From the sequence record OR896834.1: DNA of 64,000 nt; one strand, written 5' to 3'. The notes below the pieces were generated by a model. It ran no database searches. It saw only the letters and a program-made list of their open reading frames with translations, and had not been told where the DNA came from. This stretch comes from Escherichia phage Baret. The translations under genes were made by a program, and so were the position numbers. Positions 10,043 through 29,287 of the stretch are shown here, piece by piece (positions within the stretch are counted from its first letter, which is position 1; each line of letters opens with the position of its first letter).

Positions 10043-12373
10043 ATGAGCCATCGCATTGAAAAAGTAATTAAACGTGACGGTACTGTAGAAGACTTTGCTC
10101 CTGAAAAACTCAATGGTTGGGCAGAGTATGGTTGCAAAACAGTTGATGTAAGTTGGTCAGCCATTACTATGGCTGCTCAAAAAACTCTGCCTAAGGGGGT
10201 TGTAGATTCCGACACTCTGATGGACGCATTAATTAAAGCTGCTGAAAGTCTTATCAAAGATAACCCAGCATACGATGTGCCAGCAAAGGAATTACGTCTT
10301 GCGCAAATGCGTAAACGCCTTTACGACTCTTTCGAACCACCTTCTCTACGCTTCTTCCATGACCATATGGTTAGCGTAGGTGCATGGGAAGACATGAGTG
10401 CATGGATTACCGATGAGCAGTTCGAAGCTCTGAATCAGGTTATCGACCATGATCGTGACCGTCTTTTTACTAGTGGTGGACTGAAACAGTTCTTTGATAA
10501 GTATTCCCGTCGTAACATAGCCACTGGTGAAATTTATGAAACTCCGCAGTTTGCCTACATGGGTATGGCAATGGCGATGTTATCTCAACCTAGCTGGACA
10601 ATTCTAGATGCAATCGACCTCTACAACGCAATGTCACTCCACAAAATCAACGTTCCTACGCCGCCACTGGTTGGTCTGCGCTCTAGTGACCGTGGATTTG
10701 CTAGTTGCTGCCTCGTGGATTCCACTGACACGTTGGATTCAATCGACACCGCCGAGCACATCGTCTTCAAAATGGTCGCAGCCAGAGCGGGAATCGGGTA
10801 TCATCTTGAAAGCCGATCAATTGCTGATCCGGTGCGAAATGGGGCATTCCCGCATTCCGGAAAACTGCCATATTATCGACACATTGACCGCTCAGTAAAG
10901 GCCAATACTCAGCAAACTCGTGGTGGTTCTGCCACAGTGTCTTATCCGTACTTCGACCCTGAAATCATTCAATTGATGCAGGTTAAGCAACAACGTGCTA
11001 CAGATGAGAATAAAATCGATAAGATGGATTATTCTCTGAGCTTTAACAATCTTTTGTTAAAACGTTATCTTAAAAACGAAGATATTACGCTAATGTCATA
11101 CTTCTATGCTCCAGAAGTTCATGAAGCGTTTTATAGTGATGACGAGGCTAAATTTGAAGAAATCTACGTGGCAGCGGAGAAACGTGTGGCATCTCTTACA
11201 AAGATCGACCACGAAGGAAAAACAGTTCCAGCAGCTCCTAAAGTCTCTGCAAAAGAAATCCTAGATACTTGGCTACGTATCCGAATGGAAACAGGACGTA
11301 TGTATGCGCATCACATCGGGGAATCTAATCGTCACGGTAATTTCCTTGATCCGATCCGTATGACAAACCTTTGTGTTGAGATTACTCAGCCTACACGCCC
11401 GTTCCACCATATCACGGAACTGTATAAAACAAAAGAACAACTTGATCAAATGAAGCCGGAGGATATTGGTGAAGTATCTCTGTGTAACTTAGGTGGTGTT
11501 GTACTTGGACGCATGGAATCTCTGGCTGAGTGGGAAAAAACTTGCTACATCCTCCTGAAATTCGTTGATACAATTATTGAAATCCAGGATTATCCGTTCC
11601 CAACTATGGAATATACGGCTAAGAAACGTCGTAATGTTGGTATTGGACTGATGAACGCAGCAGGTGCAATGGCAGCAGAAGGTCTGGCTTATGAAGGTAT
11701 TGAAGCCCGTAACTGGATTCACCGTGAGGCTGAAAAACTGTCTTACTTCCTGCATAAAGCCTCTGTACGCCTAGCTAAAGAACAGGGTGCATGTGAGTGG
11801 TTTGATCGTACTAAACCATCTAAAGGAATTCTGGTAATCGACACGTACAAGAAAACTGTTGATGAGCTGGTATCCGTAGGTCTAGAAATGGATTGGGAGT
11901 CTCTACGTGCAGATATTCTGAAATATGGTATGCGTAACTCTGTTCTGACTGCTCAGATGCCGGGAGAAAGTTCTTCTGTTCTGTTAGGTGTTACTAACTC
12001 TATTGAACCACCTCGTAAGATTGTATCTATCAAGGGTAGTGCAGTAAATAAAGTAATTGCAATTGCTCCAGGTGCAACCGATTGGGAAACGTTAATGAGC
12101 TATAAACTGGCCTATGATGTAGATCGTATCGAGTGGATCAAGTGGGTAGCAACTATGCAGAAATTCTTCAGTCAGTCTATCAGTACTAATATGTACTATG
12201 ACTACACCAAGTTTGAGAATGAAATCATTCCTGGCCCAGTAGTAGTTCGTGATTTCATGACTGCTGTTAAGTATGGGTGGAAAACTTGGTATTATGCTAA
12301 CTTCAATACCGCAAATGGTGGAGGTGCTGGAGAAGAAGCAGCCGGTTGTGCATCCGGTGGTTGTACTATTTAA
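10043..12373 (+). CDS. nrdA: ribonucleoside-diphosphate reductase large subunit (class Ia)
   Basis: 776 aa from ATG 10043 (SD AAAGGAAAG); RNR alpha motifs, C-terminal CASGGC; track start 9938 is probably an upstream extension. Confidence 0.9.
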   Translation: MSHRIEKVIKRDGTVEDFAPEKLNGWAEYGCKTVDVSWSAITMAAQKTLPKGVVDSDTLMDALIKAAESLIKDNPAYDVPAKELRLAQMRKRLYDSFEPPSLRFFHDHMVSVGAWEDMSAWITDEQFEALNQVIDHDRDRLFTSGGLKQFFDKYSRRNIATGEIYETPQFAYMGMAMAMLSQPSWTILDAIDLYNAMSLHKINVPTPPLVGLRSSDRGFASCCLVDSTDTLDSIDTAEHIVFKMVAARAGIGYHLESRSIADPVRNGAFPHSGKLPYYRHIDRSVKANTQQTRGGSATVSYPYFDPEIIQLMQVKQQRATDENKIDKMDYSLSFNNLLLKRYLKNEDITLMSYFYAPEVHEAFYSDDEAKFEEIYVAAEKRVASLTKIDHEGKTVPAAPKVSAKEILDTWLRIRMETGRMYAHHIGESNRHGNFLDPIRMTNLCVEITQPTRPFHHITELYKTKEQLDQMKPEDIGEVSLCNLGGVVLGRMESLAEWEKTCYILLKFVDTIIEIQDYPFPTMEYTAKKRRNVGIGLMNAAGAMAAEGLAYEGIEARNWIHREAEKLSYFLHKASVRLAKEQGACEWFDRTKPSKGILVIDTYKKTVDELVSVGLEMDWESLRADILKYGMRNSVLTAQMPGESSSVLLGVTNSIEPPRKIVSIKGSAVNKVIAIAPGATDWETLMSYKLAYDVDRIEWIKWVATMQKFFSQSISTNMYYDYTKFENEIIPGPVVVRDFMTAVKYGWKTWYYANFNTANGGGAGEEAAGCASGGCTI

Positions 12374-23173: not shown

Positions 23174-23692
23174 ATGACTGTTGATGAACTAACAGAACAT
23201 CTCTTATCTAGAGGGTTTGATACAGATAAATATCACTGCTGGCTAAGCCCAGAAGGATGGCTAACAGTCCCATTGTATGACTTCTCTGGGATGTTGAGAG
23301 GCTATCAGACTTATAATCCTTCTGCTCCAAAAGGTCATGGTAAATGCCCCTTTGAAGCTAGATATTTTACTTATTCTACTACACAGTGTGTATGGGGACT
23401 AGAAACTCTCAATGGAGACGAAAAAGTAGTATTGATTGCTGAATCTGTATTTAAGGCAGTTGCGTTACATAACGCTGGTTATCCAGCCCTGGCAATGTTG
23501 GGTTCTTCCCCCGGAAAAGCGTTGTTAAAGCAATTGAAATTACTACCTTTTAAATTGGTAGCTGTTGGGGATAATGATCCTGCTGGTGAAAAATTTGCTA
23601 GACAATTAAATGGATTTGTTTCTCCTGTAGATGTGGATGAGATGTCTACCGAAAACTTGAAAAATTTTCTTGCTATGAAGCTAAATTTCTAA
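23174..23692 (+). CDS. Toprim-domain protein (172 aa)
   Basis: VVLIAESVFKAV...LVAVGDNDPAGEKFA matches Toprim E...DxD core. Confidence 0.5.
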   Translation: MTVDELTEHLLSRGFDTDKYHCWLSPEGWLTVPLYDFSGMLRGYQTYNPSAPKGHGKCPFEARYFTYSTTQCVWGLETLNGDEKVVLIAESVFKAVALHNAGYPALAMLGSSPGKALLKQLKLLPFKLVAVGDNDPAGEKFARQLNGFVSPVDVDEMSTENLKNFLAMKLNF

Positions 23693-23698
23693 TATAAT
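23670..23698 (+). promoter_or_regulatory. early promoter driving tRNA genes
   Basis: -35 23670-23675, -10 23693-23698; overlaps 3' end of Toprim ORF. Confidence 0.55.
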
Positions 23699-23712
23699 AT
23701 ATTTATAAATTC

Positions 23713-23801
23713 GGAAGAATAGCATAACGGTATTGCAGCAGATTGCTAATCTGTCGGTTTGAAATATAGCCTTGTGGGTTCGATTCCCACTTCTTCCGCC
23801 A
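23713..23801 (+). tRNA. tRNA-Ser (anticodon GCT)
   Basis: Acceptor GGAAGAA/TTCTTCC, loop TTGCTAA, long variable arm, T-arm GTGGG-TTCGATT-CCCAC, CCA. Confidence 0.8.
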
Positions 23802-23807
23802 AATTCT

Positions 23808-23885
23808 GGTTCTCAAGCTCATATGGTATGAGCACCCGGCTCATAACCGGAAGGTACGTAGGTTCGAATCCTCGGGGAGCCACCA
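23808..23885 (+). tRNA. tRNA with CAT anticodon (Met/fMet/Ile2 type)
   Basis: 7-bp acceptor (2 GU), D-stem GCTC/GAGC, loop CTCATAA, CCA; T-stem imperfect. Confidence 0.6.
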
Positions 23886-24101
23886 ACTTAATTAGGGGAT
23901 TACAAGTGGAATTATACATAGTTTATGTTGTGTTTATTCAAGATAGAGAATACCCTGATGAATATAAAAAAGGATATAGGTTAGCCAGAGCTACTTCTGA
24001 AGCCCAAGCTATGGATAAAGTGGCAGATTATATGCTTACAGTAGAAAACGTACACTACATCGACTACCTTGAAGCCTCAAAAGTAATTGACTAAACTACA
24101 C

Positions 24102-24178
24102 GGGGGTGTAATCGAATTGGCATAGGTACTGGACTTAAAATTCAGGTTTTGTGGGTTCGAATCCCACCACCCCTACCA
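24102..24178 (+). tRNA. tRNA-like gene, anticodon loop CTTAAAA (TAA, Leu-type) with short variable loop
   Basis: 7-bp acceptor, AC stem CTGGA/TTCAG, T-arm GTGGG-TTCGAAT-CCCAC, CCA; type-I architecture unusual for Leu. Confidence 0.55.
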
Positions 24179-24353
24179 AATTAAGGAAATAAGATGTATA
24201 GACACCCACCTCCGCCAACACGTCGTTCTAGAGAAGTTATCCTCATGGAATTGACTAAAAACTTCAAGGCAACTCTTGAGGATAGAGATTTAGGCACGGA
24301 TGAAGACATTGATTTTATTTGTAGACTATTAAAGATGAAACTGGAGAAACAAC

Positions 24354-24560
24354 ATGGCTAATCCTGAAATTACCATGCAACGATTCATGGCTAAAGGCAT
24401 GATAGCTGAGGCAGGCATTGAACAAGAAGTAAAAAGTTATTACGAACAGATTAAGGGTATTGTAGACTCGGCTAAAAACACCGGAGAAAAAGAACATGGT
24501 GCGGCAATTATGGCTATAACTCTTATTAGTCTAGACTTGGCCGAAGAATCTGGAGTTTAG
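24354..24560 (+). CDS. hypothetical protein (68 aa)
   Basis: ORF track. Confidence 0.35.
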   Translation: MANPEITMQRFMAKGMIAEAGIEQEVKSYYEQIKGIVDSAKNTGEKEHGAAIMAITLISLDLAEESGV

Positions 24561-24590
24561 CTCCTCCAAACAGAATTTTTAAAAATGTAC

Positions 24591-24620
24591 TTGCCTTTTG
24601 CCTTAAATTTCTGATATAAT
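24591..24620 (+). promoter_or_regulatory. early promoter (TTGCCT-18-TATAAT)
   Basis: -35 24591-24596, -10 24615-24620. Confidence 0.55.
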
Positions 24621-24650
24621 AATTATATAAATTGATGGAGGAGTTAACGA

Positions 24651-24926
24651 ATGCAAAATCGTGTTGTAGCAACTGGTATTGAAAGTGCAATCTGTAAATC
24701 CTGGGAAGGCTGGGAAGGTGAGATTGAATGGCTTTATTTCTATGATGTAGAACTTCTACCGGAAGTTAAAGCTAAATGTATTGAAGCTGGCATGGCTCCA
24801 GATGCAAAAGCTGATATTGATATTTTAATGTCTGAACTTAAAGGTCGTGTAGTTACCGTTAGTAATGAGGGCGAAGAAGTTTTCGAACTTCCATTTTCCT
24901 TAACTGTCACTCCTAAGTTCGACTAA
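24651..24926 (+). CDS. hypothetical protein (91 aa)
   Basis: ORF track; SD GGAGGAG. Confidence 0.45.
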   Translation: MQNRVVATGIESAICKSWEGWEGEIEWLYFYDVELLPEVKAKCIEAGMAPDAKADIDILMSELKGRVVTVSNEGEEVFELPFSLTVTPKFD

Positions 24927-29126: not shown

Positions 29127-29205
29127 GGGGGATGGGTCTGCTAGGGGTGGACACCTCGCTTGCACCGAGGACATCAGAACGATTCGAATTCGTTATCCTC
29201 CACCA
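29127..29205 (+). tRNA. tRNA-Ala (anticodon TGC)
   Basis: Acceptor GGGGGAT/ATCCTCC, AC stem CCTCG/CGAGG loop CTTGCAC, T-arm AACGA-TTCGAAT-TCGTT, CCA. Confidence 0.7.
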
Positions 29206-29210
29206 AATAC

Positions 29211-29287
29211 GCGTGATTGATGGAATTGGCATACATACCGTCCTTAGAAGTCGGGTTTTGAGGGTTCGAATCCCTTGTCACGCACCA
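29211..29287 (+). tRNA. tRNA-like gene, anticodon loop CTTAGAA (TAG, Leu-type) with short variable loop
   Basis: Acceptor GCGTGAT/GTCACGC, T-arm GAGGG-TTCGAAT-CCCTT, CCA; type-I architecture unusual for Leu. Confidence 0.55.

Follow-up and report, generated by a model that had tools for sequence, protein, structure and literature searches.

A tRNA-Leu(UAA) gene with a short variable loop in the tRNA cluster of a T5-like phage, and short-armed leucine tRNAs in other phages and in tRNA arrays

The gene found at positions 24102-24178 (+ strand) of the window, i.e. the whole stretch of 64,000 nucleotides of Escherichia phage Baret (OR896834.1) that was analyzed, is a type I tRNA-Leu(UAA): a leucine tRNA with a short variable loop, 77 nt long including an encoded CCA. 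In our reading it is probably a functional phage-encoded leucine tRNA, which would derive from the class II bacterial tRNA-Leu design by loss of the long arm, and which would be charged with leucine and decode leucine codons. Its structure, its conservation, the covariation among its homologues, a core signature specific to Leu tRNAs and a match with the codon usage of the phage were all observed. tRNA-Leu(UAA) is almost certainly functional and, in mechanistic terms, ordinary.

ARAGORN called the gene as a tRNA-Leu with anticodon taa, and the RF00005 tRNA model of Rfam scored it at 57.4 bits (E = 1.5e-10) for a gathering score of 29, which is far above chance and in the middle of the range obtained for the tRNAs of the window. 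In the ARAGORN structure the acceptor stem has 7 bp with G1.U72 as first pair, U8 and A9 lie between the acceptor and D stems, the D arm has a stem of 3 bp and a loop of 11 nt, the anticodon stem has 5 bp with a loop CUUAAAA (24134-24140) of the standard 7 nt, and the T stem has 5 bp with loop UUCGAAU. Alignments with the E. coli leuZ and leuW tRNAs, together with ARAGORN and the motif test described below, place the D arm at 24111-24127, with a 3-bp stem AUC/GGU and a loop G13-AAUUGGCAU-A22 that carries A14, A15 and G18G19. The anticodon UAA lies at 24136-24138, with A36-A37-A38 after a U33-U34 context. The variable loop GUUUU (24146-24150; alignments and ARAGORN) has 5 nt and its U48 (24150) pairs with A15; the discriminator A73 (24175) is followed by the encoded CCA (24176-24178). 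All these elements are on the + strand. With a Leu anticodon (of the NAA/NAG form), a variable loop within the 4-5 nt of a type I tRNA-Leu and an otherwise complete cloverleaf, the gene is of type I, and it does not have the variable arm of more than 10 nt, forming a stem-loop, that defines class II. The anticodon is not complementary to a stop codon and the size of the anticodon loop is unaltered, so that the features of a suppressor or recoding tRNA are absent. In its coordinates, its anticodon and loop sequence, the encoded CCA and a variable loop of 5 nt, the first-pass annotation was right throughout, and the software proposed no other anticodon or isotype. Its suggestion that hand folding had produced a mis-assigned tRNA fell, as ARAGORN and Rfam agree on both anticodon and structure.

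An unconstrained single-sequence MFE fold of tRNA-Leu(UAA) gave no cloverleaf and a weak z-score. MFE folding of single tRNAs often misses the cloverleaf and is uninformative here, so covariation among homologues was used for support. In a distant blastn search with at least 80% query coverage, 340 phage records contained the UAA gene, with an identity of at least 99% in 292; the comparison with T5-like phages proposed by the first-pass annotation yielded abundant homologues. The paralogous UAG gene of the window, presented below, was recovered by blastn from 363 records and the type II Leu gene of T5 from 93. The homologues that were fetched and scanned again with ARAGORN all measured 75-78 nt. 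Most belong to phages of Proteobacteria, namely Vibrio Demerecviridae (JSF12, PG07 with both UAA and UAG genes, and Thalassa), Aeromonas phage LAh_8, Ounavirinae (KhF2, Mordin and AYO145A), Vequintavirinae (EspYZU15 and KB57) and Xanthomonas phage X1, where the anticodon is CAG; Streptomyces phage Teutsch has a tRNA-Leu(UAG) at 129-203 of locus L016. Mordin contains three Leu tRNAs of 78-79 nt alongside Ser tRNAs of 90 and 93 nt.

Fifteen short Leu tRNAs from Demerecviridae, Ounavirinae, Vequintavirinae and Aeromonas, Xanthomonas and Streptomyces phages were aligned for the covariation analysis. The cloverleaf accounts for this alignment well: 96.4% of its cells are paired, double changes occur in 15 of the 20 pairs, a result that none of 500 shuffles and no slid register approaches, and compensatory changes are present in all four stems across families. 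U8, A14, G18, A73 and the T loop are invariant. The 15:48 pair is nearly always A:U, the Streptomyces phage having G:C. Teutsch, whose listed host is S. griseus, has G15 and C48; C48 has also been reported in S. coelicolor for its type I tRNA-Leu, which hints that the 15:48 pair may track the host LeuRS. In E. coli genomes, blastn found no significant similarity of tRNA-Leu(UAA) to any chromosomal tRNA, and the sole E. coli matches were 23-nt T-arm stretches in a plasmid "tRNA-OTHER". The latter was rejected as a relative, being tRNA-like but unrelated, with 8 nt in its anticodon loop. It is found on NZ_CP065971 (1454-1526 of locus L259), ARAGORN reads its anticodon as "tttt", and its T arm is common to 22 E. 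coli plasmids.

These data weigh against a reading of the gene as a pseudo-tRNA in decay or as a tRNA-like element without a role in translation, e.g. a processing signal or a recombination site. Some pipelines do give the UAG paralogue's homologues a pseudo or OTHER label, the gene has been lost in T5 through insertion of an HNH endonuclease, and many tRNA-like stable RNAs without assigned function lie nearby in T5 records. A near-identical gene kept in hundreds of phages, compensatory changes in every stem, invariant bases at the tertiary interactions, A73 with an encoded CCA and an Rfam score typical of the window tRNAs all speak against decay, and we hold this explanation to be extremely improbable.

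The identity elements read by the E. coli LeuRS are A73, A14, A15:U48, G18G19, A20a and D/T-loop contacts; the long arm is not needed and arm-less variants keep activity (PMC9976931, PMC6614811). Every E. coli-type element is present in tRNA-Leu(UAA): A73, U8:A14, the A15:U48 Levitt pair, G18G19 and A20a. The unusual identity set envisaged by the first-pass annotation is therefore half right, since the architecture is unusual for a bacterial-type tRNA-Leu and the identity set is the standard one of E. coli. A composite motif was defined from U8:A14, A15:U48, GG at 18-19, A at sequence positions 21 and 23, an anticodon at 35, and A73. Both Leu tRNAs of the window, leuZ, leuW and the Leu1 tRNA of T5 contain this motif; it is absent from the other parsable tRNAs of the window (19 of 19) and, among the matches listed, from all of the roughly 2,000 non-Leu tRNAs of the arrays described below.

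The comparison with class II E. coli leuZ (UAA) and leuW (UAG), whose anticodons are those of the phage pair, shows where the designs part. U8:A14, A15:U48, G18G19 and A73 are common to them, and the D arms are collinear, sharing the 3-bp stem, the mismatch G13.A22 and a loop of 9 nt (AAUYGGYAN); leuZ also has the G1.U72 pair of tRNA-Leu(UAA). The variable region measures about 15 nt in leuZ and 5 nt in the phage tRNA, and these approximately 10 nt are the sole difference in length from leuZ, leuW and T5 Leu1. The phage tRNA further has C32 where leuZ has U32, and the stems are unrelated in sequence.

The isotype was also examined with a MAFFT-based profile in which the anticodon was masked, the variable region removed and the Leu class trained on type II Leu tRNAs only. 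Leu ranked first for both window tRNAs, with a score of 19.3 for UAG and, for UAA, a score of 10.5 that ties with Lys (10.4). The eight controls were all correctly assigned, and only 233 of 336 short Leu tRNAs were assigned to Leu; with this result and its 260 columns for tRNAs of about 70 nt, the profile is crude and was treated as supportive only. For the three Leu tRNAs of the Mooglevirus phage Sf14, published tRNAscan-SE isotype scores are highest for Leu and only slightly lower for Lys and Ile2 (PMC12482277). Their gene order suggests that they are the counterparts of the 78-79-nt Leu tRNAs, also three in number, of Mordin, a phage of the same genus. Four indirect tests (identity set, motif, isotype profile and published scores) agree in pointing to a tRNA that would accept leucine.

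The near-equal scores for Lys, and for Ile2 in the Mooglevirus case, are what could be put forward for a tRNA with a Leu anticodon that is charged with another amino acid, or that modifies decoding or recodes. LysRS and IleRS depend on anticodon bases, and tRNA-Leu(UAA) does not have those bases; the tRNA does have A73 and the Leu-specific core motif that is missing from all non-Leu tRNAs tested. The decoding-modifying tRNA suggested by the first-pass annotation found no support either: UAA is an ordinary Leu anticodon, which pairs with UUA and UUG and with no stop codon. In the 55 ORFs of the window UUA is the most used Leu codon (26.6%), followed by CUA (20.7%), so misreading of UUA would harm every phage protein. 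We judge such a mischarged or recoding tRNA highly unlikely. UUA and CUA are the codons that match the anticodons of the two phage Leu tRNAs. Both are rare in E. coli, where they are read by single-copy minor tRNAs.

As a functional leucine tRNA, tRNA-Leu(UAA) would be transcribed with its neighbours in the T5-like tRNA cluster and would not need CCA addition. The LeuRS of the host (E. coli or Salmonella) would attach leucine to it by reading A73 and the shape of the elbow and core, i.e. U8:A14, A15:U48, the placement of G18G19 and the 3-bp D stem with G13.A22; neither the arm nor the anticodon would be read in charging. The tRNA is predicted to decode UUA and, by wobble, UUG, and its paralogue at 29211-29287 CUA and related codons, so that the pair would supply the two Leu codons most used by this AT-rich phage. 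The simplest account of the arm loss, drawn from published identity rules, is that deletion of the arm would be tolerated in tRNA-Leu only, because LeuRS is blind to the arm and SerRS and TyrRS read it.

Earlier examples of type I tRNA-Leu are known from animal mitochondria and from S. coelicolor (PMC6614811). The type I tRNA-Leu(CAA) of S. coelicolor, like the phage tRNA, combines a 5-nt variable loop with a bacterial system; it coexists with type II tRNA-Leu under a single LeuRS (Fan et al. 2019, PMC6614811), and 5 nt is its minimal efficient loop length (PMC6614811). The S. coelicolor tRNA has C48 and its LeuRS does not use A73, whereas A15:U48 and A73, as in E. coli, are found in the phage tRNA. 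E. coli LeuRS did not charge the S. coelicolor tRNA in vitro (PMC6614811), from which it follows that a short loop and A73 are not automatically sufficient; with C48, and a LeuRS that ignores A73, part of the E. coli set is missing there. The animal mitochondrial tRNA-Leu(UUR) is also of type I with anticodon UAA, and its identity rests on A73 and A14 (PMC9976931), but it is loose and mismatched and served by a dedicated LeuRS, whereas the phage tRNA has a canonical stable cloverleaf and would use the bacterial LeuRS of its host. A further comparison is with the engineered arm-less E. coli tRNA-Leu variants (minimalist and SELEX), which LeuRS charges if A73 and the tertiary contacts of the D and T loops are kept (PMC9976931). 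These are laboratory constructs, some without an anticodon arm, and the phage tRNA, a natural complete decoder, looks like their natural counterpart.

ARAGORN found 22 tRNA genes in the window, all on the + strand between 22.0 and 31.9 kb. One of them, supported by ARAGORN and Rfam and with homologues in several phage families, is the paralogous type I tRNA-Leu(UAG) at 29211-29287 (+), also 77 nt long with a 5-nt variable loop. The two Leu tRNAs are 71% identical and are each other's closest relatives within the window. They differ in every stem but have identical D (G-AAUUGGCAU-A), variable (GUUUU) and T loops and the same A73, as expected from a shared recognition surface. The Ser (89 nt) and Tyr (91 nt) tRNAs of the window retain long arms. 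Some GenBank records label type I Leu(UAG) homologues "tRNA-Pseudo-TAG" or "tRNA-OTHER", for instance in phage AYO145A (147-221 of locus L010) and in NBSal005; the lack of the arm has probably misled the annotation into false negatives here. Just upstream, at 29127-29205 (+), ARAGORN found a tRNA-Ala(UGC) whose T arm (GAACGAUUCGAAUUCGUU) is odd and which falls under the Rfam gathering score. The same layout of Ala, 5-nt spacer and Leu occurs in Vequintavirinae (loci L006 and L007).

The window belongs to a T5-like phage: positions 23600-24700 are 100% identical to Salmonella phage PMBT29 and share 95-99.9% identity with many further T5-like phages that infect Salmonella or E. coli and have the gene annotated as tRNA-Leu. 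A consensus scan placed a sigma-70-like promoter (10 of 12 matches) at 23670-23698 (+), upstream of tRNA-Ser(GCU), tRNA-Ile2(CAU), a small ORF and tRNA-Leu(UAA). T5 has its annotated promoter P15b at the homologous place, and the promoter of the window is probably the start of a transcript that would carry tRNA-Leu(UAA) together with these neighbours. The tRNA with anticodon CAU lies at 23808-23882 (+), was missed by ARAGORN and scores 40.3 bits with Rfam; its orthologue is annotated tRNA-Ile2(CAU) in T5 and tRNA-Met in PMBT29 and others, and a CDS of PMBT29 (about 23828-24094 of the window) overlaps it.

By blastn, collinearity between window and T5 extends to 23895 and resumes at 24172. Between these limits the window carries a cassette (23896-24171, +) with the end of the small ORF and almost all of tRNA-Leu(UAA), and T5 carries instead hegA, annotated as an HNH endonuclease (10373-11076 of the T5 locus L003), only the last 7 nt of the tRNA being left. 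This clean swap suggests that endonucleases may drive the acquisition of tRNA genes by the cluster and their loss from it. T5 has no Leu(UAA) gene, and the UAA gene is thus dispensable for at least some hosts and conditions. Between 4285 and 7950 of its record (L003), T5 also has several features named "stable RNA" or "tRNA-like RNA" between tRNA genes, to which no function is assigned there.

A second exchange concerns the UAG slot. Here the homology between window and T5 stops at the start of tRNA-Ala, so that the whole Ala-Leu pair of the window is a different cassette, unrelated to the Ala-Leu pair of T5. The tRNA-Leu1(UAG) of T5 (T5t10; class II, 85 nt) belongs to the same phage lineage, occupies the same slot after tRNA-Ala and has the Leu core motif; unlike the tRNA of the window it retains the long arm, and the stems of the two are unrelated. 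A derivation of the window Leu(UAG) from T5 tRNA-Leu1 by deletion was considered and rejected, on account of these stems and because T5 homology ends before the Ala-Leu pair. The slot after tRNA-Ala holds a type I or a type II Leu(UAG) gene depending on the T5-like phage, which argues for functional equivalence of the two types. In the T5-like phages SSP1 and SB9 the type I UAA gene is found together with the type II UAG gene of T5.

The distribution of short Leu tRNAs was extended to tRNA arrays. Species-representative bacterial genomes and IMG/VR viral contigs were scanned with a pattern combining the Leu D loop, the spacing of a 5-nt variable loop and the T loop, and ARAGORN was run on the matching loci. 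Since the loci, at least 120 per collection, were chosen by a Leu-like D-loop pattern, the counts establish presence and not frequency: among the matches listed, at least 207 short (74-79 nt) and at least 19 long Leu tRNAs were found in bacterial genomes, and at least 185 short (74-79 nt) and at least 67 long ones (81 nt or longer) in IMG/VR. Ser tRNAs among these matches are almost all 83-97 nt long in the bacterial genomes, where Tyr tRNAs measure 81-92 nt; in IMG/VR almost all Ser tRNAs measure 83-93 nt and almost all Tyr tRNAs 82-93 nt. Only a handful of Ser or Tyr calls in the matches listed are shorter than these ranges. The loci are dense, with a median of 10-13 tRNAs per locus in the matches listed, and all six Leu anticodons are represented among the short Leu tRNAs. 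A73 is present in 387 of the 388 short Leu tRNAs that could be parsed from the matches listed, and among these matches the type I design recurs in at least about 390 array genes. An unselected sample consisted of the short Leu tRNAs of these loci that the pattern itself had not picked (125 among the matches listed): all 125 have A73, 117 have A15:U48 and 104 a 5-nt variable loop. The premise of the first-pass annotation, a long arm as the norm for Leu tRNAs, is valid for cellular tRNAs but fails in phage tRNA clusters with their numerous short Leu tRNAs.

A few cases look chromosomal. In Tumebacillus and Effusibacillus (loci L031, L037, L056 and L060), a 77-nt tRNA-Leu(CAA) is found in ordinary-looking Bacillota operons, adjoining a tRNA-Leu(UAA) of 86-88 nt. 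In Candidatus Nardonella (200-kb genome; 5588-5815 of locus L064), a 76-nt Leu(UAG) tRNA is part of a Gln-Leu(UAG)-Met operon that resembles the metT-leuW-glnU order of E. coli. In this endosymbiont with a reduced genome a cellular tRNA-Leu seems, from its sequence, to have lost the long arm as well.

The concentration of short Leu tRNAs in phage and mobile arrays among the matches listed, set beside a cellular tRNA-Leu that is almost always of type II (PMC6614811), raises the possibility of a role against defence systems. The tRNA would still decode Leu, its arm would have been lost under selection, and it would escape enzymes of the host or of rival phages that recognize the class II arm, so that phage translation could continue once the host tRNA-Leu is depleted; such a role adds to the best explanation and does not exclude it. 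Passages of PMC10264068 and PMC11464382 document phage tRNAs that escape tRNA-targeting defences, a passage of PMC13096335 has Septu cutting the variable loop of tRNA-Tyr, and the exchange of type I and type II alleles at one slot among close relatives suggests ongoing selection or exchange. However, no defence nuclease targeting the tRNA-Leu arm in enterobacteria was found in the open-access literature, and the OLD, PARIS and Sf14 papers report no targeting of tRNA-Leu or of the variable arm. Long and short Leu tRNAs also occur together in many loci (51 of 120 viral loci in the matches listed), and Ser and Tyr tRNAs of the same arrays retain their arms, for which the simplest explanation is a synthetase constraint, the loss of the Leu arm being neutral or compacting. 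Selection by defence systems is on balance unlikely to account for the arm loss. It is equally doubtful that short-armed Leu tRNAs form a widespread "stealth" class, charged by LeuRS and invisible to nucleases or nucleotidyltransferase toxins that recognize the arm; if true, this would explain why, across bacterial phyla, they build up in phage arrays and mobile tRNA arrays. A leucine tRNA without its arm, functional and otherwise ordinary, is the reading we retain.

Textbooks give tRNA-Leu a long arm everywhere but in animal mitochondria. A recent review says the same (PMC9976931), and the sole biochemical study of bacterial type I tRNA-Leu presents it as a Streptomyces rarity (PMC6614811). 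The gene itself is already annotated tRNA-Leu in hundreds of records; in the open-access literature we found no discussion of short-armed tRNA-Leu in phages, and nothing relevant to it for phage BF23. From the sequences collected here, short-armed Leu tRNAs are an under-described but widespread lineage of phages and tRNA arrays, the design being common in the tRNA clusters of E. coli and Salmonella phages and found in arrays of many phyla. Annotation pipelines that call such genes "pseudo" or "OTHER" are probably wrong. The compact Leu-accepting scaffolds may be of use in tRNA engineering. Enterobacterial LeuRS probably charges type I tRNA-Leu in vivo, and nature would then bear out the in vitro finding that the enzyme can do without the arm. 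An identical gene is carried by some T5-like phages of the BASEL collection, such as GreteKellenberger and TrudiRoth, and with these tRNAs nature provides a ready system in which the purpose of the tRNA-Leu long arm can be examined.
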